Shown: positions 2,546 to 57,056 of the stretch, in pieces
Layout of the letters: every line of letters starts with the position of its first letter
Numbering within the stretch: the first letter of the stretch is position 1
From: an uncultured Spirochaetota bacterium
GTDB taxonomy: Bacteria; Spirochaetota; UBA4802; UBA5550
Direction: 5' to 3'
Assembly: GCA_963827275.1 (NCBI GenBank)
Contig: CAWHAA010000005.1
Location: 617,924-681,923 of the forward strand
Length of the DNA stretch: 64,000 nucleotides
Notes under the pieces: model-generated
What the model saw: the letters and a program-made list of their open reading frames with translations, nothing else
Told to the model about the DNA's origin: nothing
The model's database searches: none
Position numbers and translations under genes: made by a program

Positions 2546-4090
2546 ATGGGTGCGGCAATGAAATTAAAAAATTTATCAATCCTGCTTACGATTTTCGTTT
2601 TCATCGGAGTATCATCGAACCTGTTCGCGAACCACTTTGGTGAAACTTTCGGGTTCTCCGCCGAAGGTATGGCGCGCGGAAACGCAATGACGGCCGTTGT
2701 TAATGACTGGTCTTCTGTTTTCTATAACGTGGGGGGCCTGGGAAAATCCCTCAACATAAAGGGAGCGGGTGCCGGCAGCCAGGGCGGGGAAATGACCCTG
2801 AAACTCAGGAAGAACGATGCCGGAGGAGATTCGGGAGAGAAAGAATTCTACCCGAACCAATTCGCATTGGGAGTAATGTATGTATTCCCGCAGCTCAAGC
2901 TGAACATCCAGCGCTTCGGGACAACCAGCACCGGTTCATTCATCCCTGTTACCACCGAAGCTTCCAACAAGCAGGACCCGTACGGTTTTATCACGGTCGG
3001 CGGCGTCCTCGACCTCAATAACGTCGTGAAGCTGCCTGACCTTATCTCGACGGCCCGCCTGGGCGTCGGCCTGGGGCTGAACGCAGACCTGACCGTTGCG
3101 AAGGTCAACGACATCGACCCGCGGACCCACAACTTCCTCCGCTACGGCAAGGAAATCTCCCGCCTGGCCCTCATGGTGGGCGCGGGCATGGGGTTCCTGA
3201 ATGACGCCTTCGGCGGCGGCATCGGATTTCACGGCAACTTTAACGGGAAAGGAAAGATGTTCATGGAAGCCCAGCTTACCGCGAACCCGCAGATCCCCAT
3301 CGCGCAGACAAACATGGACCTCGGCCTTGCACCCGGCGCCATCGCCGGCGTATACATCAGCCCGGGCAGAATCTTCAGCGCAATTGAAGGCCTCGAGCTC
3401 GGCGCGTCGTACCGGATGGAAAACAAGATGAAGGTCGAGCCCTTTGACGCGGCGGCCTCAATACTGGGCGGCGTCATCAACATGAACCTGATGCTCGAGA
3501 TCTTTGACTACTATTCACCCCACATCATTACGGGCGGCATCGCGTACAGCCGCTGGGGACTCACGTTGTCGGCTGACCTCAACTACGAGATGTGGTCGCG
3601 CATGATGGTGGGCAAATCGACGAAATACCATTACTATTCACTGCCGAAGTTTAACGACACGCTTTCATACAAGGTCGGTCTCAAGTACAACACCCCGGTC
3701 TCCTGGCTGGCGGTCATGGTCGGCTATTCATACGTGCCCAGCATCCTGGACAAAAAGACCGGCACCATGTACGCCTTCCGGCTGGGAACGGTGCAAAACC
3801 TGCTGCAGACCGGCATGTATAACATGATGGACAACAACAAGCACCTCGCATCGCTGGGATTCACCTTCACAATCCCGAAGATGTGGAAGCTCGGCGGCAT
3901 GGTCGTCATCACCGCATCCTACCAGTTCCAGTACCTGGAAACGGTAAGTGTTTCGAGAAACGGCCTGAGCATCGATCTTGCGACCGGGGCCCAGGACCCC
4001 GCGATGATCAACGCATACCTGCTGAACCCGAGCTATTCATACGGCGGGATGAACCACAGCATATTCTTCGAAGTCGGCATGAAGATATAA
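2546..4090 (+). CDS. Outer-membrane beta-barrel protein, FadL/TodX-like, with signal peptide
   Basis: The signal peptide is MKLKNLSILLTIFVFIGVSSNLFA. The protein is rich in alternating Gly/aromatic beta-strand segments. The N-terminal FYNVGGLG segment resembles the FadL hatch region. The start could be the ATG at 2546 or at 2558; the ORF track starts at a TTG at 2501. A rho-independent terminator follows. Confidence 0.55.
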   Translation: MGAAMKLKNLSILLTIFVFIGVSSNLFANHFGETFGFSAEGMARGNAMTAVVNDWSSVFYNVGGLGKSLNIKGAGAGSQGGEMTLKLRKNDAGGDSGEKEFYPNQFALGVMYVFPQLKLNIQRFGTTSTGSFIPVTTEASNKQDPYGFITVGGVLDLNNVVKLPDLISTARLGVGLGLNADLTVAKVNDIDPRTHNFLRYGKEISRLALMVGAGMGFLNDAFGGGIGFHGNFNGKGKMFMEAQLTANPQIPIAQTNMDLGLAPGAIAGVYISPGRIFSAIEGLELGASYRMENKMKVEPFDAAASILGGVINMNLMLEIFDYYSPHIITGGIAYSRWGLTLSADLNYEMWSRMMVGKSTKYHYYSLPKFNDTLSYKVGLKYNTPVSWLAVMVGYSYVPSILDKKTGTMYAFRLGTVQNLLQTGMYNMMDNNKHLASLGFTFTIPKMWKLGGMVVITASYQFQYLETVSVSRNGLSIDLATGAQDPAMINAYLLNPSYSYGGMNHSIFFEVGMKI

Positions 4091-4115
4091 CGCGCCATCT
4101 GCATGACAACCCGAA

Positions 4116-4142
4116 GCCGGGCCCTCGGGCCCGGCTTTTTTA
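4116..4142 (+). terminator. Rho-independent terminator
   Basis: Stem GCCGGGCCC / GGGCCCGGC followed by a run of seven T, 25 bp after the outer-membrane protein stop codon. Confidence 0.7.
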
Positions 4143-4157
4143 TCGGCGGAGCAAACA

Positions 4158-5321
4158 ATGCCCGATCACCCGGCAACCATCCTGCAGCCGGCCCGCTATT
4201 TCAATGGACGCGGGCCCGTACGCTCTTTCTTCGCACCGGGGAGGATCAATATCATCGGCGAACACCTCGACTATAACGGCGGATACGTGTTCCCGGCCGC
4301 GATATCCCTGGGCATAACGGGATGGGTCCAGGACAGGGAGGACCGCCTCATCAGGATCGCCTCTGAACAGGCGCCCGGCGAGGTCATTGCCGACCTCGAC
4401 CGTCTCCCCGGCGATACTGCCACGGGGACGTGGGGCGATTATCCGCTGGGAGCGGTCCGCTACCTGTTGAAAAGCGGCCATGCGATCGAACGGGGGAAAA
4501 ACCTCCTCTACGCAAGCACCCTCCCCCAGGGGGCCGGGCTTTCTTCCTCGGCTGCGCTGGAGGTCCTGACCGCGTTCATGCTCACCGCGGACTCATGCAA
4601 AACACCGGAGGACCGTGTCCGCATGGCGCGTCTCATGAGCGCCATGGAAAATGAATGGATCGGCGTCCGCTGCGGCATCATGGACCAGTTTGCCGTGGCG
4701 CTCGGCAGGAAGGGGCACGCGATCCTGCTCGATTCGGGGAGCCTTGAATATGACTATGTGCCCCTGCCCGCCGGCGGCCCCGCCCTTGTCATCATGAACA
4801 GCAACCGCCCCAGGGAGCTTGCGGACTCGAAATACAATGAGCGGCGCGCCCAGTGCGAGGAGGCCCTCTCCCGTATCAGGGAAAAGAGGGGCGGCACCGG
4901 CGCCCTCGCCCGCGCCGACGCCGCGGACCTCGAGCTCATCAGTGACGACACCCTCCGCAGGCGCGCCCGTCATGTCATATCAGAACAGCGCCGGGTGATC
5001 GAGTCAACCGCGGCCCTCAACCGGGGCGACCATGAACTGTTCGGCAGGCTCCTCTCCGGGTCCCACCGGTCTTTGAGGGACGACTACGAGGTCACCGGTC
5101 AGGAGCTTGACGCGCTGGTTGCGGCGGCGGAACGCTCGCCCGGGTGCATGGGCGCGCGCATGACCGGCGCCGGCTTCGGCGGCTGTGCCATCGCCCTGGT
5201 CAGCGGGCCTGAAATCAGCCGGTTCCGGAAACGCGCAGGAGATGAATATCATGCGGCAACCGGGCTGTCCGCGGATTTTTACGAGTTTACTCCGGAAAAC
5301 GGCGTCCACGAGATAAAATAA
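4158..5321 (+). CDS. galK: Galactokinase
   Basis: 387 aa. Galactokinase signature GRINIIGEHLDYNGGYVFPAAI, GHMP-kinase ATP motif PQGAGLSSSAALEV and a C-terminal GHMP domain (GAGFGGCAIALV). Ribosome-binding site GGCGGAG. Confidence 0.9.
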   Translation: MPDHPATILQPARYFNGRGPVRSFFAPGRINIIGEHLDYNGGYVFPAAISLGITGWVQDREDRLIRIASEQAPGEVIADLDRLPGDTATGTWGDYPLGAVRYLLKSGHAIERGKNLLYASTLPQGAGLSSSAALEVLTAFMLTADSCKTPEDRVRMARLMSAMENEWIGVRCGIMDQFAVALGRKGHAILLDSGSLEYDYVPLPAGGPALVIMNSNRPRELADSKYNERRAQCEEALSRIREKRGGTGALARADAADLELISDDTLRRRARHVISEQRRVIESTAALNRGDHELFGRLLSGSHRSLRDDYEVTGQELDALVAAAERSPGCMGARMTGAGFGGCAIALVSGPEISRFRKRAGDEYHAATGLSADFYEFTPENGVHEIK

Positions 5322-5582
5322 CAGCCGCCGATCATTTCCGGACCATGGTCAGGCCGACTGGACGGGTCCGTAGCTCACGATGGATTTTTATAACCGGTAA
5401 AAAAAATTATTATACAATAAACGCTCCATAGGTCATTATGGCATTGTAGTCCATGCTGCTCCGCCCTGTCATGAAAGCGGGCAGGCAGCATGAAGCATTG
5501 CAATCGCATAGAGAACGAGGGGAATGAATAAAAAAAATCCCGCCTCAAAAGTGACGATACATATTACCGTTGAGGTCATATC

Positions 5583-8993: not shown

Positions 8994-9507
8994 CTATTTC
9001 TGTAAATTTACCAGCACTTCACCCGCAAGGGCATTCATGCTGTTGTACACCCTCGCACCGAAGCCCCACCAGGGGCTGTACGAGAATTCGTGGGTCACGA
9101 CGGTGGCGCGCTTGACCACTTTACCGCTTGCCGCGTCAACATACTCGATGCCGCACTTGACCGTGTAGTTCGACTCGCTCAGCGAGGCATTGCTGAACTT
9201 TACCAGCAACTGTTTCCGCGTCGCGCGGAGCGGCCGCTCCCTTCGTGGCGACGCCGGTCACCGTCCAGCCCTTGAAATAGCCCTTTACAAACTTCTGAAG
9301 ATTTTCATTCTGCGCCTTTATCTCCTGCGCCCATTCGGCCTGTTTCGGATAGCCGTACTTTTTCCAGTTCTGCTCTCCAAGGTCGAGCCATCCCACATGG
9401 ACCTTTTTGTATTTCTGGAATTCCGCTTTTACCTGGGCACTGCCGCAGCCTGACGCAAGAATGGCGGCGCACGCAACGAGACAGGCCAGCATTGTTAATT
9501 TTTTCAT
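8994..9507 (-). CDS. Small lipoprotein; the frame is interrupted between about 9210 and 9290
   Basis: The N-terminal ORF (9507..9136) starts MKKLTMLACLVACAAILASGCGS, a lipobox. The protein-like C-terminal part continues in another frame as ORF 9209..8994 (KFSNASLSESNYTVKCGIEYVDAASGKVVKRATVVTHEFSYSPWWGFGARVYN...). The two ORFs overlap. Confidence 0.5.
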
Positions 9508-11998: not shown

Positions 11999-13666
11999 TT
12001 ATTCTTCCAGTATCAGCGCTTCATACGGTTCGATTTCAATCACGCTGCCCGGGTCCCCGCTCCTCCCGGCGGCGCTTGAGAGCACCACGCCCCCCGGCCG
12101 GAACCCATCAATGCGGAGCACCCTCTTTCTGCAGGAAAAATTCAGCGCCACGAGCAGGCACTCTCCGTCCCCTTCCCTGAAGAATGTCAGCACCTCCGGG
12201 TCCCCGCCGACAAACCGGAGGGAGCCGCGCTGGAGCGCCGGCCGCTTCTTTCGAAGCGCGATCAGCTCACGGTAGAAGCAGAGGAGGGAGCCCGGTTCGC
12301 CCATCTGCGCCGCGACATTCGCTTCCCGATAGTTATCGGTGACCGGGAGCCATGGATCAGAAAGGGAAAAGCCGGCATTGGGCCCCGCCGACCACTGCAT
12401 CGGCGTGCGCTCCGGGTCGCGCCCTCTATAGAAAGGCCAGTACTTCTTCCCGACCGGGTCCTGTATCCTGCGGCGTGGCACGCGCCCGTTCTTCATGCCG
12501 ATCTCCTCGCCGTAGTAGAGAAATGGCGTGCCGCGCGCCGTGAAGAGCAGGGCCGCAAGCACCTTCGCTTTTTTCACCCCGTACCTGTCGCGGCACCACC
12601 GGGTCATGCTGCGCGGCTGGTCGTGGTTATTGAGCACAAGGCTCGGCCATCCCCCGGCCGGGATCGCGGCGTACCAGCGCAGGAGACACTCGCGGAAGCG
12701 GGCCGCGCCGTACTTCGAAAAGAGGAGTGAAAAGTCAAACGCGAGGTGCAGCTCATCCGTGCCGCTGCCAAGGTACGACGCGGCTGTCTTCACGCCGCCC
12801 GGCGACGCTTCGTAGGTCTCTCCAACCATCATGCGATTATCATACTCGTCCAGAACCTTCCGCAGCTCCCGCAGCACGCCGTGGGTCTCCGGCCTGTTCT
12901 GGTCATACACGTGCTTCTGTAAATCGTAGGGCCGGGGTGCGTTGGGGCCCCAGCCGAACGGGTTGCTGCGGAACCGGTCGTCCTTGACGAGCCAGACGAC
13001 CGCGTCGAGGCGGAAGCCGTCAACGCCCCGGTCGAGCCAGTAGCGTATCTCGCCGAACACCGCGTCGCGGAGCGCCGGGGTGCGCCAGTTCAGGTCAGGC
13101 TGCTCCTTCAAGAATGAATGAAGATAATACTGCCGGGTCGTATCGTCCCATTCCCACGCCCTGCCGCCGAAGGCCGCCATCCAGTTGTTGGGCGGCCTCC
13201 CCCTTTTCCCGTCATGCCAGATGTACCAGTCCCGCCTGGGATTGTCCCGCGAAGCACGGGACTCGACAAACCAGGGGTGCAGGTGCGACGTGTGGTTGAT
13301 CACCAGGTCCATGACGATCTTTATCCCGCGCCGGTGCCCTTCGCGTATCAGGCGGTCAAAATCCTCATCGGTCCCGAACACCGGGTCGATGCCGCGGTAA
13401 TCGGAGATGTCGTATCCGAAGTCGAACATGGGAGAGGTGTTGATCGGCGAAAGCCAGATCGCGTCGATCCCGAGCCATGACAGGTAATCGAGCTTTTCAA
13501 TAATACCGGGGAGATCGCCCACACCGTCGCCGCTGGCGTCATAAAAGCTCCTCGGATAGATCTGGTAGATGGTGCCGTGCTTCCACCAGGTGAATTCGCC
13601 TGAATGCCGCATACTCTGACCCCCGGACATGTTTGGTGTACCATACGTTGAATCTCTTCCCTTCAT
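11999..13666 (-). CDS. GH13 alpha-glucosidase / oligo-1,6-glucosidase family enzyme
   Basis: 555 aa. N-terminal WWKHGTIYQIYPRSFYDASGDGVGDLPGIIEKLDYLSWLGIDAIWLSPI is the canonical GH13 oligo-1,6-glucosidase / trehalose-6-P hydrolase start. Catalytic regions GFRLDAV, EL..VGE and NHD are present. Confidence 0.85.
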   Translation of the reverse strand: MKGRDSTYGTPNMSGGQSMRHSGEFTWWKHGTIYQIYPRSFYDASGDGVGDLPGIIEKLDYLSWLGIDAIWLSPINTSPMFDFGYDISDYRGIDPVFGTDEDFDRLIREGHRRGIKIVMDLVINHTSHLHPWFVESRASRDNPRRDWYIWHDGKRGRPPNNWMAAFGGRAWEWDDTTRQYYLHSFLKEQPDLNWRTPALRDAVFGEIRYWLDRGVDGFRLDAVVWLVKDDRFRSNPFGWGPNAPRPYDLQKHVYDQNRPETHGVLRELRKVLDEYDNRMMVGETYEASPGGVKTAASYLGSGTDELHLAFDFSLLFSKYGAARFRECLLRWYAAIPAGGWPSLVLNNHDQPRSMTRWCRDRYGVKKAKVLAALLFTARGTPFLYYGEEIGMKNGRVPRRRIQDPVGKKYWPFYRGRDPERTPMQWSAGPNAGFSLSDPWLPVTDNYREANVAAQMGEPGSLLCFYRELIALRKKRPALQRGSLRFVGGDPEVLTFFREGDGECLLVALNFSCRKRVLRIDGFRPGGVVLSSAAGRSGDPGSVIEIEPYEALILEE

Positions 13667-13869
13667 CTATAACCATGCATCACATCGGCTCACCGGGTAT
13701 ATATTTCATGTGTGATAGCATGGAAAACGGGCAAATGCAATACTAATTTGCCTGAAAAATCATCAAAATCTCTTAAAAAAACCCTGTATATCCCGTGTAA
13801 AAAAATTATCACCCGCACGGAAAAGATTTACCAGAATTATACCCTAACCCTAAGGGGGTCAGAGTAACC

Positions 13870-14016
13870 ATGCCACCGATAACTATCGCCCCAACAGGGA
13901 TCAGAGCAGCCATTCCACCGATAACTATCGCCCCAACAGGGATCAGCGCAACCATGCCACCGATAACTATCGGCCCAACAGAGGCCAGAGCAGCCATGCC
14001 ACCGATAACTATCGGG
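13870..14016. repeat. 3.5 tandem copies of a 42-bp unit, each carrying the inverted repeat CCGATAACTATCG(G)
   Basis: Units at 13870-13911, 13912-13953 and 13954-13995, plus a partial unit 13996-14016: ATGCCACCGATAACTATCGCCCCAACAGGGATCAGAGCAGCC and its variants. Both strands keep open frames (+: MPPITIAPTGIRAA x3; -: GAIVIGGMAALIPV x3), which is typical of non-coding low-complexity repeats. GGGGGTCAGAGTAA sits immediately upstream at 13855-13867. Confidence 0.8.
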
Positions 14017-14118
14017 CTGAAGCATGATCACTGCCAGCAATGTCAGAAAATTTTTTATCATCCGCCTCCCCTGTTCGTATACACAATAGCACCAAACCAG
14101 AAGCCAGAGGCTATTCCA

Positions 14119-36800: not shown

Positions 36801-37043
36801 GAAGAGCCCTTTCATTCCAATGCGTTACTTGAATAAATATTAAACAAGTGTTTAACGACATAATATAAAATGTCAATTTTTTTATGCCCCCTATATGCCG
36901 CGCGGAATCTTTTGTTTTATACAAAAATACATGACCAAATTATAGATTTGTCATGTATGATAAAAATATAGATGCCCAGGATAATTTTAAAATAGAAAAA
37001 TCCGGTGACGATATAAAAAACCGCCGGCTGGGGGCCGGCGGCG
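36801..37043. repeat. Conserved non-coding cassette R1 (about 243 bp), about 95% identical to 38831-39073
   Basis: It begins GAAGAGCC...GATGCGTTACTTGAATAAA...ATGTCAATTTTTTTATGCCCCCTATATGCCGCGCGGAATC. It contains the palindrome ACATGACCAAATTATAGATTTGTCATGT (36928-36955). It ends with the hairpin CCGCCGGCtgggGGCCGGCGG preceded by AAAAAA. On the minus strand that hairpin is a terminator with a T6 tail, for the gene at 37069-38802. Confidence 0.8.
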
Positions 37044-38830: not shown

Positions 38831-39073
38831 GAAGAGCCTCAAAATTTTGATGCGTTACTTGAATAAAATCTTAAACAAGTGTTTAACGACATAATATAAA
38901 ATGTCAATTTTTTTATGCCCCCTATATGCCGCGCGGAATCTTTTGTTTTATACAAAAATACATGACCAAATTATAGATTTGTCATGTATGATAAAAACAT
39001 AGATGCCCAGGATAATTTTAAAATAGAAAAATCCTGTGACAAAATAAAAAACCACCGGCGGGGGGCCGGCGGC
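38831..39073. repeat. Conserved non-coding cassette R2, near-identical copy of R1
   Basis: Same sequence as R1 with about 10 substitutions. Its terminator hairpin CCACCGGCgggggGCCGGCGG lies 26 bp after the stop of the gene at 39101-40849. The same palindrome is at about 38948-38975. Confidence 0.8.
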
Positions 39074-39100: not shown

Positions 39101-40849
39101 TTATCTTGAAATTTTAAACTTCATATTAAACTTATAATCCTGCGGTGTTCCCACGGTAGCATTCCCCGGAACGCCAGCCGCCATTTGACCCGGATATCTC
39201 GTTGCATTCGATGATGATACTATGCAACTATGGCTTGGGATAGCCGGAAATGTGGTCGCCGTGGTACCCAGCCAGACAGCAAGATTACTAGTACCATTAT
39301 AGATAAACGGTTGTGTCAGCGGGATTTCGATCCAGTCACCCTGTACAAGACCGGCAGGCATTGAAAAGAAACCGTTAAGCGCAATCAACTGGTCATTAAA
39401 GTTACCAGCAGCAGGGTCCGCCACCAGAGGATCCGCGCTGCTGTGTCCAATAATAACCCGATAATTGTTATAGGTTGTCGCAGTTGATGATGGACTGTTC
39501 AAGCGGCAGGCAATAGAAGTAATGGTGCCGGCCGAGCCCAGCTCCGTGGCACGGTACAGGGTTAACCTGCCTTCTGCATTTGTGGAAAATGGCATGCTGG
39601 TTGACGAACCACTGGCAGTTATAACGTCCATGGTGCCGCCGGCGAAGCGGAGTACCGGTTCAAATGCGCGCTGTCGAATGGTACCGGTAGGACTTAATGG
39701 ATTTGTTGAAGATACAACACGATATGGTATAATATTATTGTATTGAAGCAAGTAACTACCCGAATCGACAATACATGTTATATCTATCAACAGATTACTT
39801 GTTCCGTCATAAAAAAAACGACTTTTATTAAAAGGTATCCAGACAGTTGACGGTTGTTCAGCAGGCACAGTGTATGCGATATCCTGTGCTACGATAACCG
39901 GGGCATTATCGCCATAATTATCAGTAAATGTGGTAACAAGACCCGTTGTGGAAACAGGAACATGAGCAACACTTACAGTCATATTTGAAACAACAGTTAA
40001 AGCAGTAACACTGTACGGATGCAAAGCCAAGCCCGTAATCAATCCGCTGCCATTAATATCAGATGCCAAGATAAGCATCTGAGTACGTCCAGTTGTACCA
40101 GGTGCCAATGTAAGGCCATTTGGTCCAGTTTTATCAGAACAAATCACATTATTTGTCCCGCCCGCGAACTTGAACTTCACATGATGCGGGCTCTGGCTGG
40201 TTTGTGTCGCCGTATCAGGCGTGGCGCTGCTTGTGCTGTACACCCTGCCGGTATACGGGACCGCCCCGGCGCCGGTTGTGAGCCGGACCCCGCCGGTGCA
40301 GGCCGACGTCCGGGTGATATCGACCACGAGATTGTCCACCCCGTTGTAATTGAACCGGGTATCGAGCGGTATTTCAAAATATTCCCCCGCGGCGCCCGCG
40401 GGGATGCTCACCGCCCTGTCCAGGACCGTCACGGCAGAGCCCTTGCCCTGGTTGACGTTCGAGGTCATATCCGTATTGAGCGCGGGAACAGAAGAATGCC
40501 CGAGCCTGATGGTGACGCGCGGACAGGAGAGCGCCTGGCTGTTTTCATAGTACCGGAAGTAGATGGACGCGATATTGCCGGACCCGGCGATGTCCGCAGG
40601 CAGGTACAGGAACTGGTAGTGGCGGAACTCCTCCCCGTTGAACGGGCCCAGGATGGAGCTGGTCGGGTTGCTCAGCGCGACCGTCTTGATAAAATTCGGC
40701 CCGCCGGAGAGGCCGAGCAGGGCCAGCATGGAATTGTCTTCTTTTTCCCTGTTGCAGACGGTCAGTGCGAGCAACGAAACAATCAATGTGAATAATGCCA
40801 TATATAGCTTTTTCATGACCTTCCCCCATGTTGATGCGCATATGCCCAC
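39101..40849 (-). CDS. Large surface lipoprotein (paralog B of 37069-38802)
   Basis: 582 aa. Lipobox MKKLYMALFTLIVSLLALTVCNR. Shares the MLALLGLSGG, NVNQGKG..TVLD and FNYNGVDNLVVD repeat-domain blocks with paralog A at roughly 35-40% identity. Ribosome-binding site GGGGGAAGG. Confidence 0.6.
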   Translation of the reverse strand: MGICASTWGKVMKKLYMALFTLIVSLLALTVCNREKEDNSMLALLGLSGGPNFIKTVALSNPTSSILGPFNGEEFRHYQFLYLPADIAGSGNIASIYFRYYENSQALSCPRVTIRLGHSSVPALNTDMTSNVNQGKGSAVTVLDRAVSIPAGAAGEYFEIPLDTRFNYNGVDNLVVDITRTSACTGGVRLTTGAGAVPYTGRVYSTSSATPDTATQTSQSPHHVKFKFAGGTNNVICSDKTGPNGLTLAPGTTGRTQMLILASDINGSGLITGLALHPYSVTALTVVSNMTVSVAHVPVSTTGLVTTFTDNYGDNAPVIVAQDIAYTVPAEQPSTVWIPFNKSRFFYDGTSNLLIDITCIVDSGSYLLQYNNIIPYRVVSSTNPLSPTGTIRQRAFEPVLRFAGGTMDVITASGSSTSMPFSTNAEGRLTLYRATELGSAGTITSIACRLNSPSSTATTYNNYRVIIGHSSADPLVADPAAGNFNDQLIALNGFFSMPAGLVQGDWIEIPLTQPFIYNGTSNLAVWLGTTATTFPAIPSHSCIVSSSNATRYPGQMAAGVPGNATVGTPQDYKFNMKFKISR

Positions 40850-40952
40850 CGCGGGTCAGCGACCGCGGCTGTTATGTAGCCGGTTTGGATTTTTGTAATC
40901 TTGACATGATATTCATTTTCGTCAACACTTTACTGGCGGGGCAGTGGGTTTG

Positions 40953-41075
40953 TTTACTCTGACCCCCCGGTTTCCTGCGTTGCTTACTCTGACCCCAGTG
41001 CTTTTCCTGCGAGCCGGCGATAGTTATCGGTAGATTCCGAACTCTGACACCGTATTATTGTTTACTCTGACCCCC
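40953..41075. repeat. Cluster of short dispersed repeats: 3-4 copies of TTACTCTGACCCC plus one CGATAGTTATCGG
   Basis: TTTACTCTGACCCCCC 40953-40968; TTACTCTGACCCC 40984-40996; CGATAGTTATCGG 41018-41030; degenerate AACTCTGACACC 41039-41050; TTTACTCTGACCCCC 41061-41075. Two copies are followed by TTT(T)CCTGCG. The cluster is in the divergent intergenic region between lipoprotein B and the FadL-like outer-membrane protein gene. Confidence 0.6.
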
Positions 41076-41300
41076 TTGTTTTCATAATAATTTATTTTTT
41101 ATATACATAAAATGATAAAAAATAATATTTTACTGGACTCTTCCATAGAAAATCGCTATTATTAGTGGTTTGGGTAGAATGGGTTGCATTATTAGAAGGT
41201 AACAATATAAAAGAACAAACGCTCTAATGATGCGAGCTATGTTCCTGTGCAATCGGGCCCTTATTGTGCGGTACAAGTCGCATCATAGCAATGTGTTGTA

Positions 41301-43091
41301 ATGAAAAAAATTATAAAGCCACTATCGAAGACCTTCGTGATCTGCCTGGCAGCGATAACTATCCATGCTGCGGCAGCTTCCGCTTCTCCCCTGCATGATG
41401 AGAGTGGCATCATGCCCGAGCACAGCGCGGAATATGTACGCACGCAAAGCAGGAACGCCAGCACTGATGCTGACGCGGTTTTTTACAACCCGGCCGGTTT
41501 GGCTTTCCTGCTCAATGGCGGGATATACCTCATGCTCAACGTCATGAATGAATACCGCCAGCACGATACGTCCGCCACCCTGTGGGGCCTGCAGGGCGTT
41601 GACGCGTATACTCCGGCAACCGCGCCAGGCCGCTACCTTGACAGGGGAACGTATTCCACCCGGTCCATGACGACCATGCCCTCCGACATGGCATTCATTT
41701 ACAAAAGGACCAACTGGGCCGTCTTCTCTTATTTCTCGCTCCTGAACCACATCCCCGGCCAGAACAGCTCACGGGGCCTGTCCTCGCTGGACCGTTCTAC
41801 CGTCGCCTTCAACGCGGTCATGGCCTCGCGGCTGTCGCAGCAGCTGGGCCACATCGCCAGCAGCAGCTACCTGAGCAGGAGCCAGACGGACCTGGGCGTT
41901 ACGGTCGGCGGGACGTTCGCGCCCCTCGACTGGTTCTCGCTGTCGCTGGCCGCCAGGTACCTCTACATGAGCTCAAGCACCGTGCTCGCACACGCGCCAC
42001 TCGACGTCGGCTACTCGGGCGGGATATCGGGAAACGCCTACCAGGTGCCGACCTACATCGATACGGACCTCTCGGGCCACGGGGCCGGCATCATCGCGGG
42101 GCTCGACGTCAGGCCCCGTGAAGAAATCAACATCGGCCTGCGGCTCGAATACTATCCGCCGATGGCGGCGAAAAAGACGACCGAACGCTTCATCGCCAAC
42201 CCGGTCGTGGCGCAAACGGGGGAGCTGAACATATTCTGCGACAGCGTCTGGCCGCTGCTGCTCAATGACCGCGCCGGCAGCATGGGGCAGGTGCTTAACT
42301 TCCTGCTGATGGACCAACGGGCGCTCAAGAACATCGGCAACAGGGTCGCGGTGACCTATCCCGCATCTTTATCGCTCGGATTCTCCTACCTGGCCGCGGG
42401 CGCCGTGAAGCTGTCCACGTCCGTCGATATCACCTTTCCCCGCGCCCGGGACCTTGACGGCCGGGAGCGCGACTGGAACATCGCCGGGTACCGACTGGGC
42501 CAGAGCGTTGAATGGATCATCAACAAGTGGGTCGACGTCAGCGCCGGCTATTCATACCACGATTACGGGATAAAAGCTGCCAGGAGAACGGAGTACAACA
42601 CCCTCCTGCCGAGCCATACCGTGGGCGGCGGCTTCACCATGAAGGTGCTTGACTTCATGAACCTGACTGCGGGCGGCTCATACAGCTTTGAAACTCCCTC
42701 TCGCACCGGCAGCCTGGAGCTGATACGCTCGACCCTCATGGGCGACCAGTTCGCCTACGGCATGGCGCAATCAGGGCGGCACACGGGCAGCTCGTGGCGC
42801 ATCTCGCTGGGCGTTTCCTTCTCGATCTTCCCGGTATCGGCGGAACACATACGGAGGGCGGAGGAGCATTACTGGAAAGGAATGTCTAATTATCTGTCCG
42901 ATGACATCGATTCCGCCATCGACGAGTTCAAGGCGGCAAAGTTCAACAACCTGTACTACCGGGACGTTGACAGGAAGATCCGGGACCTCACGGAATTAAA
43001 ACAACTGATTGGCAGGAACAAACAGCAACAGGAAGAAGACAAGAATGATGCCGAGAGAAAAAACAGCAAAAGGAACAGGGGCACCGAATAG
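41301..43091 (+). CDS. Outer-membrane beta-barrel protein (FadL/TodX-like hatch motif) with about 100-aa charged C-terminal extension
   Basis: Signal peptide MKKIIKPLSKTFVICLAAITIHAAAASA. AVFYNPAGLAFL resembles the FadL N-terminal NPA hatch motif. The last strand is ...WRISLGVSFSIF, followed by a helical, Lys/Glu-rich tail (EHIRRAEEHYWKGMSNYLSDDIDSAIDEFKAAKF...). Confidence 0.5.
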   Translation: MKKIIKPLSKTFVICLAAITIHAAAASASPLHDESGIMPEHSAEYVRTQSRNASTDADAVFYNPAGLAFLLNGGIYLMLNVMNEYRQHDTSATLWGLQGVDAYTPATAPGRYLDRGTYSTRSMTTMPSDMAFIYKRTNWAVFSYFSLLNHIPGQNSSRGLSSLDRSTVAFNAVMASRLSQQLGHIASSSYLSRSQTDLGVTVGGTFAPLDWFSLSLAARYLYMSSSTVLAHAPLDVGYSGGISGNAYQVPTYIDTDLSGHGAGIIAGLDVRPREEINIGLRLEYYPPMAAKKTTERFIANPVVAQTGELNIFCDSVWPLLLNDRAGSMGQVLNFLLMDQRALKNIGNRVAVTYPASLSLGFSYLAAGAVKLSTSVDITFPRARDLDGRERDWNIAGYRLGQSVEWIINKWVDVSAGYSYHDYGIKAARRTEYNTLLPSHTVGGGFTMKVLDFMNLTAGGSYSFETPSRTGSLELIRSTLMGDQFAYGMAQSGRHTGSSWRISLGVSFSIFPVSAEHIRRAEEHYWKGMSNYLSDDIDSAIDEFKAAKFNNLYYRDVDRKIRDLTELKQLIGRNKQQQEEDKNDAERKNSKRNRGTE

Positions 43092-43110
43092 CATACCGGG
43101 AGGTCTGGTT

Positions 43111-45114
43111 ATGAAGCAAAGGATATTTTACATGATCATGATAAGCCTGCTCGGCCTGAACGGGTGCACAAACTATCTCGAGGGCAACCGGGATACCCAG
43201 CTGCTCTACGCGGCCTTTTTCAGCACGGCGCCGGTGCTGAACCCGCTTGTGATCGCCGGCACATCGAACAATTTCATTACCCTGGCCCGGCCGACATTTG
43301 TCGTTGCCGGAAGTCCCGCGCCGTCGGTCGAAGCGTACATCGGGCTGGACGACGGGAGCATGACTATTTCGGGAACGACGGTGACCGGCGCCATAGAGGG
43401 CCCGGTCGACGTTTCAGCCGCTCCGTACCAGTTTAACACCGGCCTGTCGCCAGACACCATTTATCGCATCTATGTCGTGGCGATAAACCCCAATGGCTAT
43501 TCCGTCAGGACCATCACACAGAGTACTTCGCATATCGTGCCGGTGCTGGATCCCCTGGTGATGAGCATTCCGCCAACATCCGATACAATAACCCTGGACC
43601 AGCCGACTTTCTCGACTGCGGGCAACCCCCTGCCCACGGTTGAGGCGTATATCGGCTATGCCGGGGGAGCAACGCCCATATCCATAACACCGGCGGCCAC
43701 CGGCTATACCGTTGCCAACGATCTCCAGGGCCCGGTGGACGTTTCCGCCGGCGGATGTCAGTTCACCGGCCTCGCGAACAATACCCTCTACCGGGTTTAC
43801 GTGGTGGCGCAGAACATGGATGTGAGCGGTACATACCACCAGTCGATCGAGTTTATCGACGAGAGCACTTATGGGATAGCGCCGGTCATGGACGCGCTGG
43901 TGACAACGACGATTCCGCCGACAACAGACACGATAACACTGGACCAGCCGACGTTCTCGACTGCGGGGAACCCCCTGCCAGCGGTGAGCGCGTATATCGG
44001 CGTGGACGGCTTCATTTCAGTCGCGGGAACCGCGGTAAGCGGCGCCACCCAGGGACCGATCGACGTGTCATCAGCTGACTACACCTTCACCGGCCTTGCA
44101 AATGACACGACCTACCGGATCATCGTGGTGGCGCAGAACGTTATCGGTTCCTCGGTACAGCAGGCGACGCAGAGCACGACGGGCATCGCGCCGGCGATGA
44201 ACGCGCTGGTCACGACCACCATCCCGCCCACAACAGACACGATAACACTGGACCAGCCGACATTTGCCACTGGGGGCAACCCGGTCCCGACGGTGCGGGC
44301 CTATATCGGCATTGATGGATTCATAACGGTCGCAGGGACCACGGTAAGCGGCGCAGACCAGGGGCCTGTCAATGTGGCAGCGGCAGGCTGTACCTTCACC
44401 GGCCTGGCCAACGACACGACCTACCGGATCATCGTGGTGGCTGAAAACAGCGTCGGCTCATCGGTGCAGCAGGCGACGCAGAGCACCGGGGGCATAGCGC
44501 CGGTAATGGAAGCACTGGTCATAACAACGGTTTCACCCACGATTGACACAATTACCCTGGACCAGCCGACGTTTACCACCGGAGGAAACCCGGCGCCTAC
44601 TGTCAAAGCCTACATCGGTATTGATGGCTTTATTTCAGTCGCGGGGACCGTGGTGACCGGCGCAGACCAGGGACCGATCAACGCGGCATCTGGAGGTTAC
44701 ACCTTTACCGGCCTGGACAATGACACGACCTACCGGATCATTGTGGTGGCCGAAAATACCTTCGGCTCTTCGGTACAGCAGACGACGCAGAGCACGGTGG
44801 GTATCGCTCCGGTGATGGACACGCTGGTCACGACCACTATCCCACCGACCACAGACACGATCACACTGGACCTGCCGACGTTTACCACCGGGGGCAACCC
44901 GGCGCCGACGGTCAAAGCATACATCGGTATTGACGGCTTTATTTCAGTCGTGGGGACAGTGGTGACCGGCGCAGACGAGGGGCCGATCAATGTAGCGTCA
45001 GCCGGATACGCGTTCACGGGACTGACAAACGGCACCACCTACCGGATCATCGTGGTGGCCGAGAACAGCGCGGGTTCTTCAGTACAGCAGGCAACAGAGA
45101 CCACGCTGCCGTGA
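43111..45114 (+). CDS. Repetitive surface lipoprotein with about six tandem FN3-like repeats
   Basis: Start at ATG 43111 (ribosome-binding site GGGAGGT; lipobox MKQRIFYMIMISLLGLNGCTN). The ORF track's start at 43009 overlaps the upstream gene. About 100-aa units (IAPVMDALVTTTIPPTTDTITLDQPTFSTAGNPLPAVSAYIGVDGFISVAGTAVSGATQGPIDVSSADYTFTGLANDTTYRIIVVAQNVIGSSVQQATQST) repeat about 6 times at high DNA identity. Confidence 0.65.
   Translation: MKQRIFYMIMISLLGLNGCTNYLEGNRDTQLLYAAFFSTAPVLNPLVIAGTSNNFITLARPTFVVAGSPAPSVEAYIGLDDGSMTISGTTVTGAIEGPVDVSAAPYQFNTGLSPDTIYRIYVVAINPNGYSVRTITQSTSHIVPVLDPLVMSIPPTSDTITLDQPTFSTAGNPLPTVEAYIGYAGGATPISITPAATGYTVANDLQGPVDVSAGGCQFTGLANNTLYRVYVVAQNMDVSGTYHQSIEFIDESTYGIAPVMDALVTTTIPPTTDTITLDQPTFSTAGNPLPAVSAYIGVDGFISVAGTAVSGATQGPIDVSSADYTFTGLANDTTYRIIVVAQNVIGSSVQQATQSTTGIAPAMNALVTTTIPPTTDTITLDQPTFATGGNPVPTVRAYIGIDGFITVAGTTVSGADQGPVNVAAAGCTFTGLANDTTYRIIVVAENSVGSSVQQATQSTGGIAPVMEALVITTVSPTIDTITLDQPTFTTGGNPAPTVKAYIGIDGFISVAGTVVTGADQGPINAASGGYTFTGLDNDTTYRIIVVAENTFGSSVQQTTQSTVGIAPVMDTLVTTTIPPTTDTITLDLPTFTTGGNPAPTVKAYIGIDGFISVVGTVVTGADEGPINVASAGYAFTGLTNGTTYRIIVVAENSAGSSVQQATETTLP
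43250..45110 (+). repeat. Intragenic tandem repeat (about 300-bp unit x about 6) encoding the FN3-like modules
   Basis: Near-identical DNA blocks are visible. For example GACACGATAACACTGGACCAGCCGAC recurs at about 43926, 44236, 44536 and 44850. Confidence 0.7.
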
Positions 45115-47286: not shown

Positions 47287-47300
47287 CCGATAGTTATCGG
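47287..47300. repeat. Perfect copy of the inverted-repeat motif CCGATAGTTATCGG between convergent genes
   Basis: CCGATA gt TATCGG lies 11 bp after the stop at 47276 and 12 bp before the dapL stop (47312). Just upstream there is also a GGCGCGTTTTAACGCC palindrome. Confidence 0.7.
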
Positions 47301-49087: not shown

Positions 49088-49187
49088 TATTGTATCCCTG
49101 AGTTTATTTATAAGGGATACGAAAAATATAATTGTATTGTTAAAATTTTTTTATGGACTATATATTTTTTTGCAATAAATTATATAG

Positions 49188-49200
49188 CGATAGTTATCGG
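49188..49200. repeat. Copy of the inverted-repeat motif CGATAGTTATCGG in the divergent promoter region
   Basis: AGCGATAGTTATCGGTG lies between the low-GC hypothetical gene (start 49087, minus) and the radical-SAM gene (start 49249, plus). Confidence 0.7.
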
Positions 49201-49248
49201 TGAAATGCACACTCTTTTCCCCTTGACGTATCCCGCCACCTGGTTAAC

Positions 49249-51633: not shown

Positions 51634-51853
51634 ACACCGGGGGGGGGTGGTTGCGGTTAATTCAGAGGATTTTCTGTTGTCACTATGAACGTACTGAATC
51701 CACCTTTGTATGACAATAACCGGGTCTGGTAATTATTCCGTCTGGTTTCCGTGGTCTGTGATAACGGATTCCGCTATCATGGTTGAAGGTATGTTGTTCC
51801 GGGAAATCGGAGAGTGCAGGAAAACGCGACATCACCCGGGGCGGACGCTGGCA

Positions 51854-56771: not shown

Positions 56772-57056
56772 AGTTGGATCCCTCGATGAAATTCCTTTTC
56801 GATGATAAATTTTATCCTTTTTTAATCAATTATTATTTTACCGTATCTGGACTTTTTGATTTTTATGTTCAGATTTTTTTTAGTGCTCCAATACGGCCTG
56901 AAATTCAATGGATACCCCGATTTTTTAAAGCACTATATAATGTCCGGAAAAAAAATAAGGGTGTCAGAGTAAATTATTGCTGTTAATCATTGACATTTTT
57001 CCATGCCGCCGTACCTTGATTTTGTAACCCGTACAACGTTCCAGGGTCTTTAGTTA

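Follow-up and report, generated by a model that had tools for sequence, protein, structure and literature searches.

A directional two-box repeat in intergenic spacers of Spirochaetota genomes, with a predicted role in protein docking

Interspersed intergenic repeats are known mainly from Proteobacteria. The closest described systems are the repetitive extragenic palindromic sequences (REPs), for which the criteria are that they be extragenic, palindromic, short, highly similar to each other and present in more than 100 copies per genome (PMC12306157). The two super-families of REPs are marked by an unpaired GTAG or CGTC tag at one end (PMC3733652), and bacterial interspersed mosaic elements (BIMEs) are described as regularly spaced REPs in alternating orientation (PMC2817692). 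Both are presented as known protein-binding sites, with chromosome organisation and termination as proposed roles (PMC2817692; PMC3733652). For the spirochaete strains of one REP survey, published information on REPs was lacking (PMC12306157). Here we describe a repeat found in a 64,000-nucleotide stretch of DNA (the window) from an uncultured Spirochaetota bacterium (contig CAWHAA010000005.1, positions 617,924 to 681,923), where copies of TTACTCTGACCCC lie in the spacer from which a lipoprotein gene and a gene for a FadL-like outer-membrane protein run in opposite directions. We give an even chance to the reading that these copies are the B boxes of a directional, lineage-restricted interspersed repeat made of two boxes, A and B, which would be protein docking sites with a generic, BIME-type role.

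The B box, TTACTCTGACCCC, has the general form TTRCTCTGAC[C/A]CC and is asymmetric. The A box, (A)CCGATAGTTATCGG(T), is a near-palindrome of 14-16 bp with a fixed, asymmetric GT centre. When up to two mismatches are allowed, the window holds seven matches to the B box against 0.94 expected (none of 100 shuffles reaches seven) and 12 matches to CCGATAGTTATCGG against 0.46 expected. The spacer between the lipoprotein and FadL-like genes, 485 bp long, houses a partly decayed five-box array between divergent promoters, in the order B-B-A-B*-B, where B* is the degenerate copy. Its boxes are given below, together with their alignment to the orthologous spacer (L085) of the Spirochaetota metagenome-assembled genome (MAG) JAFGJX01.

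40954 to 40966, plus strand: B box 1, TTACTCTGACCCC, exact, in column-for-column alignment with the L085 B box
40984 to 40996, plus strand: B box 2, TTACTCTGACCCC, exact, paired with box 1 in a tandem duplication
41017 to 41030, plus strand: A box, GCGATAGTTATCGG, near-palindromic partner inside the B cluster, aligned with the L085 A box
41039 to 41051, plus strand: B box 3, GAACTCTGACACC, degenerate CACC variant, with AACTCTGACACC at 41040-41051
41062 to 41074, plus strand: B box 4, TTACTCTGACCCC, exact, aligned with the last L085 B box

The preliminary description of this DNA had reported three to four copies in the spacer, two of them running on into TTT(T)CCTGCG. Both points stand: three exact copies and one degenerate copy lie within 40954-41074, and B boxes 1 and 2 are followed by TTTCCTGCG and TTTTCCTGCG, which identifies the pair as a tandem duplication of about 30 bp. 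Counted from the first base of the 13-nt A core (41018), the 10-nt core of B box 3 begins 24 nt on, at the canonical A-to-B spacing, and the box's CTCTGACACC variant is found again at L085 and at three other loci (L033, L043 and L089).

Elsewhere in the window the boxes occur as follows.

13852 to 14015, minus strand: head-to-tail array of four 42-bp A-B units
13611 to 13623, plus strand: solo B box, ATACTCTGACCCC, one mismatch, overlapping the region of ribosome-binding site and start codon of the minus-strand alpha-glucosidase gene
49187 to 49224, plus strand: A box, then a decayed B box, ACACTCTTTTCCCC, at the canonical distance
47287 to 47300, plus strand: solo A box, occupying a 35-bp convergent spacer 12 nt from either stop codon
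12326 to 12339, plus strand: A-box sequence within the alpha-glucosidase coding region, encoding TDNYR on the minus strand
56960 to 56972, minus strand: solo B box, CACC variant, a 12/13 match that reads GGTGTCAGAGTAA on the plus strand

In the array, the A boxes start at 13876, 13918, 13960 and 14002, giving periods of 42, 42 and 42, and the B boxes at 13855 (exact), 13897 (one mismatch) and, in degenerate form, at about 13939 and 13981. It had been taken for a set of inverted repeats with an inverted copy of TTACTCTGACCCC abutting it. The repeats are in fact direct, with one palindromic A box and one B-like box per unit; the inverted copy is real and exact (13855-13867, minus strand), but it belongs to the array, as the best-preserved B box of its last unit. 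Two distant relatives had also been proposed. The one near 56966 is a true match, in the divergent spacer of nadE and marC, whereas the one near 51849 shares just TTTACTCTG (9 bases) with the box, abuts the end of an open reading frame (ORF) and does not appear at up to two mismatches, and we take it as chance. The unit at 49187-49224 sits in the divergent spacer between a gene for a 156-aa protein and a radical-SAM gene, and the clusters at 13.9 kb and 41 kb are in mutually inverted orientation. By a crude ORF map only about 13% of the window lies outside ORFs, yet all but one or two of the 13 exact boxes are intergenic. Coding overlap is confined to the A box at 12326, which lies in a coding sequence and may be a coincidence there, and the B box at 13611, which lies on a start region; the clusters themselves are intergenic.

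The boxes follow a simple grammar. A box may stand by itself, A and B may form one unit, or units may follow each other head to tail in arrays that repeat about every 42 bp; in such units the centres are 22 bp apart from A to B and about 20 bp from B to A, in the same orientation. The A-N11-B arrangement of the 13.9-kb array is found also at 41017-41051 and, decayed, at 49187-49224. When all loci judged to be true members were pooled and B boxes within 45 nt of an A box were counted, B had the same orientation relative to the asymmetric A centre in 51 of 61 pairs and the opposite orientation in the other 10; relative to the centre of A, that of B lay at +20 to +24 in 27 cases, around +22, and at -18 to -22 in 18, around -20. 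An information profile of 15 non-redundant units gives the consensus CGATAGTTATCGGTAg..t..tTgCTCTGACCCC. Because the spacers carry near-zero information, the linkers keep their length and not their sequence: linker sequence differs in every copy, and array periods in other genomes run from 40 to 48 nt. Solo boxes of both kinds occur, from which we argue that each box would be recognised on its own. The suggestion that the two motifs travel together has therefore held up, since fixed spacing and orientation are found both in the window and at more than 20 loci from other genomes and metagenomes.

The boxes are also conserved in place. The orthologous spacer in L085 reads B-A-B-A-B*-B, its FadL-like protein is 71% identical to that of the window, and the genes upstream are syntenic. 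Between the two spacers, alignment is exact for the first B box, the last B box and one A box, and in both the first B box lies 27-28 nt upstream of a conserved TTGACG, the putative -35 element of the lipoprotein gene on the opposite strand. As judged from the two sequences, either the window lost one A box or L085 gained one. In the place of the lipoprotein gene L085 has a 572-aa gene (3806-5524, minus strand), which is matched by position. Four further orthologous pairs agree: clusters 3′ of an ankyrin gene, in a hydrolase/lipase spacer, 3′ of a NIL-ferredoxin gene, and upstream of a 157-aa gene whose product has an RHH-like N-terminus. In the five pairs pooled, identity is 73% at positions within boxes and 49% at the remaining intergenic positions (Fisher p ~5e-25); the boxes may themselves have helped to anchor the alignments behind these figures. 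The spacer between a 688-aa gene and a thiamine-binding-protein gene carries one, three and six boxes in three genomes, which indicates that arrays expand and decay while single boxes persist.

This conservation bears on the view that the repeat is mobile, either as a MITE (a miniature transposable element with inverted repeats) or other non-autonomous transposon, or as the ends of a larger transposon with multiple transposase-binding sites. The elements are indeed repeated, intergenic and variable in copy number; the complementary strand of B starts with GGGGTC, which recalls Tn3-family inverted repeats; and the 13.9-kb and 41-kb clusters are in inverted orientation. But there is no conserved body, no terminal inverted repeat of fixed polarity and no evident target duplication; spacers vary in each copy; and solo boxes of 13-16 nt exist, as do inverted B pairs of both polarities. 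The genes upstream of the lipoprotein gene, within the 27 kb between the two clusters, are syntenic in L085, with a cluster at the orthologous spot, and viral contigs hold no composite units. Tn3-like 38-bp inverted repeats or a 27-kb transposon spanning 13.9-41 kb were rejected in particular on the synteny with L085. Since terminal repeats, target duplications and a conserved body are missing and boxes occur solo, the repeat is not a MITE, as the preliminary description had considered, and the transposon reading, already largely refuted, strikes us as very unlikely.

Placement within spacers speaks to a second alternative, namely that the boxes are operator sites of a transcription factor and a cofactor regulating particular genes, for example the envelope genes for the lipoprotein and the FadL-like protein. 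Several observations fit it. Its clusters are mainly divergent (13.9, 41, 49.2 and 57 kb), so that four of five lie in divergent promoter spacers. The distance from B box 1 to the TTGACG of the lipoprotein gene is constant in two species, solo B boxes lie 17 nt (marC, box 56960-56972) and 47 nt (mraZ, in L086) upstream of TTGACA, and a palindromic A box suits a dimeric factor. Over all genomes, however, the clusters are found in divergent, tandem and convergent spacers alike. At least five fill convergent spacers that have no promoter (L054, L061, L063, L080 and, in the window, 47288), and in tandem spacers the cluster often begins 12-17 nt past the stop codon and at times fills the spacer. 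By our tally, about 11 units point toward a co-directional gene and about 11 face a 3′ end, and at the orthologous loci L043 and L055 the boxes differ in orientation. The neighbours are a mixed company: alpha-glucosidase, ORF6N, aminotransferase, radical SAM, NAD synthase, MarC, peroxiredoxin, thiamine-binding protein, ankyrin and lipase genes, and also hydrolase, NIL-ferredoxin, TetR, adenylate cyclase, SpoIIE phosphatase, acyl-CoA synthetase and metallo-beta-lactamase-fold genes. The boxes are, moreover, far less degenerate than normal operator sets. The presence of clusters in all spacer types, the want of a consistent orientation and the unrelated neighbours rule out an envelope-specific regulon, and we consider gene-specific regulation unlikely. 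Of the earlier proposals, then, a concentration in intergenic regions is upheld and one beside envelope genes is not; likewise, a regulator-plus-cofactor pair devoted to surface genes does not survive, while a generic pair of DNA-binding proteins is compatible with the data and is the mechanism that we favour.

Three promoter readings of the boxes were rejected separately. The A box contains CCGATAA and so resembles a sigma-28 element, but the candidate -35 is just about 8 nt upstream, far below the spacing of sigma-28 promoters. For sigma-54, the A-B junction fits GG-N10-GC, but most window copies have TTAC and not TTGC, the rest of the boxes is left unexplained, and the arrays and convergent sites contradict it too. 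An extracytoplasmic-function (sigma-E-like) reading of the TCTGA of B fails for want of a GGAAC-type -35 element.

Folding addresses a third alternative: a REP-type element acting at the level of RNA or single-stranded DNA, whose hairpins would stabilise upstream mRNA or terminate transcription and which would be spread by a Y1 transposase, either IS200-like or REP-associated (RAYT). The A box forms a weak hairpin (6-bp stem, 4-nt loop, -5.6 kcal/mol), and the B box is not palindromic. The 41-kb cluster (40945-41085) and its L085 orthologue fold no better than shuffled sequences on either strand, with z = +0.44 and -0.48 for the former and -0.60 and -0.19 for the latter. A transcript-stabilising hairpin of REP type, which folding had been proposed to reveal, is thus not a feature of this locus, nor do the members of the family share one RNA structure. 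Spacers beside A in B-A-B′ arrangements have no complementarity on reading, and a search of Rfam found nothing in the window as a whole at the gathering threshold, nor in either cluster region at E <= 1. Yet long hairpins (z = -4 to -6) can form in clusters that have an inverted B or at least two A boxes, and many clusters begin 12-40 nt past stop codons in convergent or tandem spacers, as REPs do (PMC3733652). Against this, the units run head to tail and do not alternate as BIMEs are described to do (PMC2817692), neither GTAG nor CGTC stands beside A or B in the aligned copies, and the orientation to the upstream gene (12 sense, 6 antisense in our tally) is not significantly biased.

A further mark of REPs is a cognate RAYT gene that they flank, and the transposase side of this alternative was pursued by tblastn with IS200 and RAYT queries in 760 kb of locus DNA. 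One Y1_Tnp gene was found (L048, 4912-5253), 4.7 kb from an A/B cluster on the same contig; the window has none. This gene is flanked by two palindromes, CCTCTGATAG…CTATCAGAGG, which is a point in favour, but the palindromes are not A or B boxes and occur nowhere else in the locus DNA. They are perfect, 40 nt long, lie at 4786-4827 and 5259-5299, and form a RAYT-like bracket round an IS200-like gene; they share CTCTGA with B and GATAG with A and are otherwise different, which makes them a lead only. A variant in which a 42-nt mini-element is mobilised in the style of IS200/IS605 (TTRC cleavage site, spacer, hairpin) is attractive for head-to-tail arrays, but the solo boxes contradict an obligate unit, and we retain it as no more than a minor form of this alternative. 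On balance the REP-type alternative seems improbable to us. The composite REP/BIME-like character claimed earlier survives in its BIME-like half, that is, in an intergenic, modular organisation with arrays, and not in the REP hairpin at this locus; its MITE-like counterpart fails on the differing spacers and solo boxes set out above.

The 13.9-kb array invites yet another explanation, that the boxes are coding repeats of small membrane or secreted peptides, with fragments scattered as pseudogenes; the array reads PIVIGGMAAL… or DSYRWHGC…. An ATG preceded by GGGGAGG, a strong Shine-Dalgarno sequence, opens a 73-codon frame across the array (13837-14060, minus strand), and another frame of the 42-bp array gives a glycine-zipper-like peptide. 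The ORF reads MIKNFLTLLAVIMLQP followed by four Cys/Trp-rich repeats of the DSYRWHGC… type, and its +1 frame has a PIVIGGM… repeat. Elsewhere, however, successive boxes are out of frame or meet stops, with periods of 40-48 nt; the frame through A reads CGG TAA or CGG TAG in L034 and L036; the orthologous region upstream of ORF6N in L046 is a single unit with no such ORF; and the copies at 41017 and 49187 have none either. As an account of the family the coding reading is refuted; the array ORF we take to be non-coding for its lack of conservation, with accidental translation in this genome a possibility.

A strict composite pattern was scanned against 185,579 species-representative genomes, the source genome not being among them. 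Of 25 matches, seven were judged from their flanks to be true clusters, all of them in three Spirochaetota MAGs: JAFGJX01 (L024, L035 and L036), CAVSFD01 (L030, L034 and L043) and JAKQPV01 (L033). Most other matches appear to be chance, within coding sequence or in unrelated phyla. Boxes are present also in the Spirochaetota MAG JBGSUQ01, and a Leptospirales MAG (L045) has two intergenic A boxes and no B. A looser scan of metagenomes gave 39 matches, about 15 of them distinct true clusters with the same grammar; several of the box-bearing contigs are labelled as activated-sludge or similar assemblies. Composite A-B units were not found in the scan of a viral collection, where the B box alone gave single matches that we take as chance. 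No box was seen in 22 kb each of L087 and L088, whose FadL-like proteins are 50-51% identical to that of the window, and from this absence we regard the two-box family as lineage-restricted. Five separate loci in the 64 kb of the window bear an A box. Flanks of other loci, taken without selection, have three exact A boxes in 118 kb, where chance would give 0.0003 per 10 kb. Extrapolation from these 64 and 118 kb, which is an estimate and not a count, yields about 100-350 A-bearing loci per 4.5-Mb genome.

What role might such a repeat play? Nearly invariant boxes, spacers of fixed length and free sequence, constant orientation and persistence across species are what one would expect of recognition sites on double-stranded DNA, and we infer that the boxes are bound sequence-specifically in this form. 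The A box would be occupied by a dimer, the B box by an asymmetric partner or a second domain. A spacing of two helical turns (about 21 bp) would bring every box of an array to the same side of the helix. That the clusters appear in every kind of spacer, in random orientation and next to unrelated genes favours a generic, BIME-type role over gene-specific regulation; the candidates are organisation of the nucleoid or of supercoils, or the marking of transcription-unit boundaries, with no particular regulon. Arrays would grow by local duplication and shrink by decay, while purifying selection, or else continual correction of one copy against another, would keep the boxes intact.

Several points weigh against the docking-site reading, in addition to the possible anchoring of the orthologous alignments. 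Copied repeats, or recombinase or transposase sites, more typically show such near-invariance over 13-16 nt than operators do. The phasing to one face follows solely from the 20-22-bp spacings. The strongly folding clusters, those with at least two A boxes or an inverted B, may have a role as RNA or single-stranded DNA, and about 180 kb of DNA underlie the extrapolated copy number per genome.

The docking-site reading can be taken a step further, into territory that we regard as possible but doubtful. On this view A and B would serve, in a lineage of uncultured Spirochaetota, as a pair of sites on the chromosome where an undescribed system of two components for organising DNA is loaded or docks, with a dimer on the 16-bp dyad cooperating with a partner on the asymmetric box two helical turns away. 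The one-faced nucleoprotein arrays so built would stand at about a hundred or more intergenic boundaries and would be kept by selection at the level of the host rather than by transposition.

The 41-kb cluster is flanked by the following features.

39101 to 40816, minus strand: lipoprotein gene, with a signal peptide and lipobox and no Pfam match
41301 to 43091, plus strand: FadL-like outer-membrane protein gene, whose homologues go by the name of long-chain fatty acid transport protein or contain PF03349
41134 to 41162, plus strand: putative promoter of the FadL-like gene (TGGACT-17-TATTAT), conserved in L085 and outside the box cluster

A segment of 208 nt recurs with 97% identity at 36835-37042 and 38866-39073, directly 3′ of each of two tandem lipoprotein paralogues whose proteins are just 36% identical. 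It consists of a terminator-like hairpin with a T-run and then a TTGACA promoter-like stretch, which suggests a duplicated or gene-converted terminator-plus-promoter cassette. On the other side, the gene 3′ of the FadL-like gene (43009-45114) encodes a fibronectin type III repeat protein and contains four to five tandem coding repeats of 309 bp, 75-78% identical; faint matches to the same domain appear in the genes that follow the FadL-like orthologues of L085-L088.

A few observations were made in passing on other box-bearing loci. A third conserved motif, CCNGTTCGTATA(C/T), is found at 14070-14081 in the window, at 9436-9447 and 10079-10090 in L046, at 724-735 in L036 and at about 4873 in L048. 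It lies some 30 nt upstream of the start codon of the ORF6N gene of the window and some 80 nt upstream of that of the L036 gene. Downstream of it lie ORF6N genes (L046 has two, as tandem paralogues), a gene for a coiled-coil protein and the Y1 transposase gene (where it reads CCCGTTCGTACCC), and the motif may serve accessory genes as a promoter or leader element. An exact A box lies about 290-300 nt from the 3′ end of the orthologous 688-aa gene (L063 1748, L086 8743 and L089 8673); it reads P-I-T-I-V in L063. Either this is a box that is tolerated within a gene, or conservation of the protein has fixed a coincidence. In L074, a metagenome contig of 34% GC, a degenerate copy of a tRNA D-arm and anticodon stem lies at about 900-960, upstream of tRNA-Met (981-1055). 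This copy, GGTCAGAGCACCTGA, resembles the complement of B and is bracketed by two inverted A boxes, so that A-type boxes occur in a low-GC organism too, in a tRNA-like context. An origin of B from tRNA was nevertheless rejected: GGTCAGAGCA is D-arm-like, but the spacers have no tRNA features.

The family is unusual in that two short boxes alone are conserved while linker length is kept, that its units are directional, and that boxes persist at orthologous sites despite strong intergenic divergence. Together, the conserved boxes, kept spacing, direction and persistence point to a sequence-specific protein partner, for which the two exact probes and the availability of genomes with boxes and of related ones without, such as JAXGNG01 and the ERZ25039527 bin, provide a handle. 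For annotation, the family accounts for several spurious small ORFs and "tandem repeat" calls in the box-bearing MAGs. Literature searches for the box strings returned unrelated primer matches alone and no description of the boxes. As these searches matched neither an Rfam family nor a paper, we class the two-box family as a new form of interspersed mosaic repeat.

How does it compare with what is known? There is some architectural likeness to partition systems. In sopC of the F plasmid, tandem direct repeats of about 43 bp each carry one 16-bp palindrome, and sites of the ParB/KorB/Noc type are identical palindromes of 13-16 bp, tens of them across a replicon, some of those for KorB in RK2 being paired with a KorA site at a fixed distance. 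The likeness to sopC and KorB is one of architecture only; the two-box repeat differs in being chromosomal, in occupying by extrapolation a hundred or more spacers, in having a second, asymmetric box, and in having no ParB-like gene linked to it. Pneumococcal BOX elements and neisserial intergenic mosaic elements (NIME) are also modular and intergenic, with a short module reiterated in tandem a variable number of times, but there the whole module is conserved, whereas here it is just the two boxes of 13-16 nt.

The nearest relatives are the BIMEs and REPs of Enterobacteria, Pseudomonas and Stenotrophomonas. Like them, the repeat consists of short, highly similar extragenic sequences at a density far above chance, with regularly spaced modules in arrays of variable length, in every type of spacer, often just past stop codons, and common to related species. 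Unlike them, it has only one palindromic box of two, with a weak hairpin, and it lacks the GTAG or CGTC tag; the tblastn search of the locus DNA showed no RAYT beside A or B boxes. Its units run head to tail, its linkers keep length and not sequence, and the cluster at 41 kb has no significant fold. With the tag and the alternating orientation missing, we place it as a BIME-type mosaic repeat that stands outside the REP and BIME families as these are defined.

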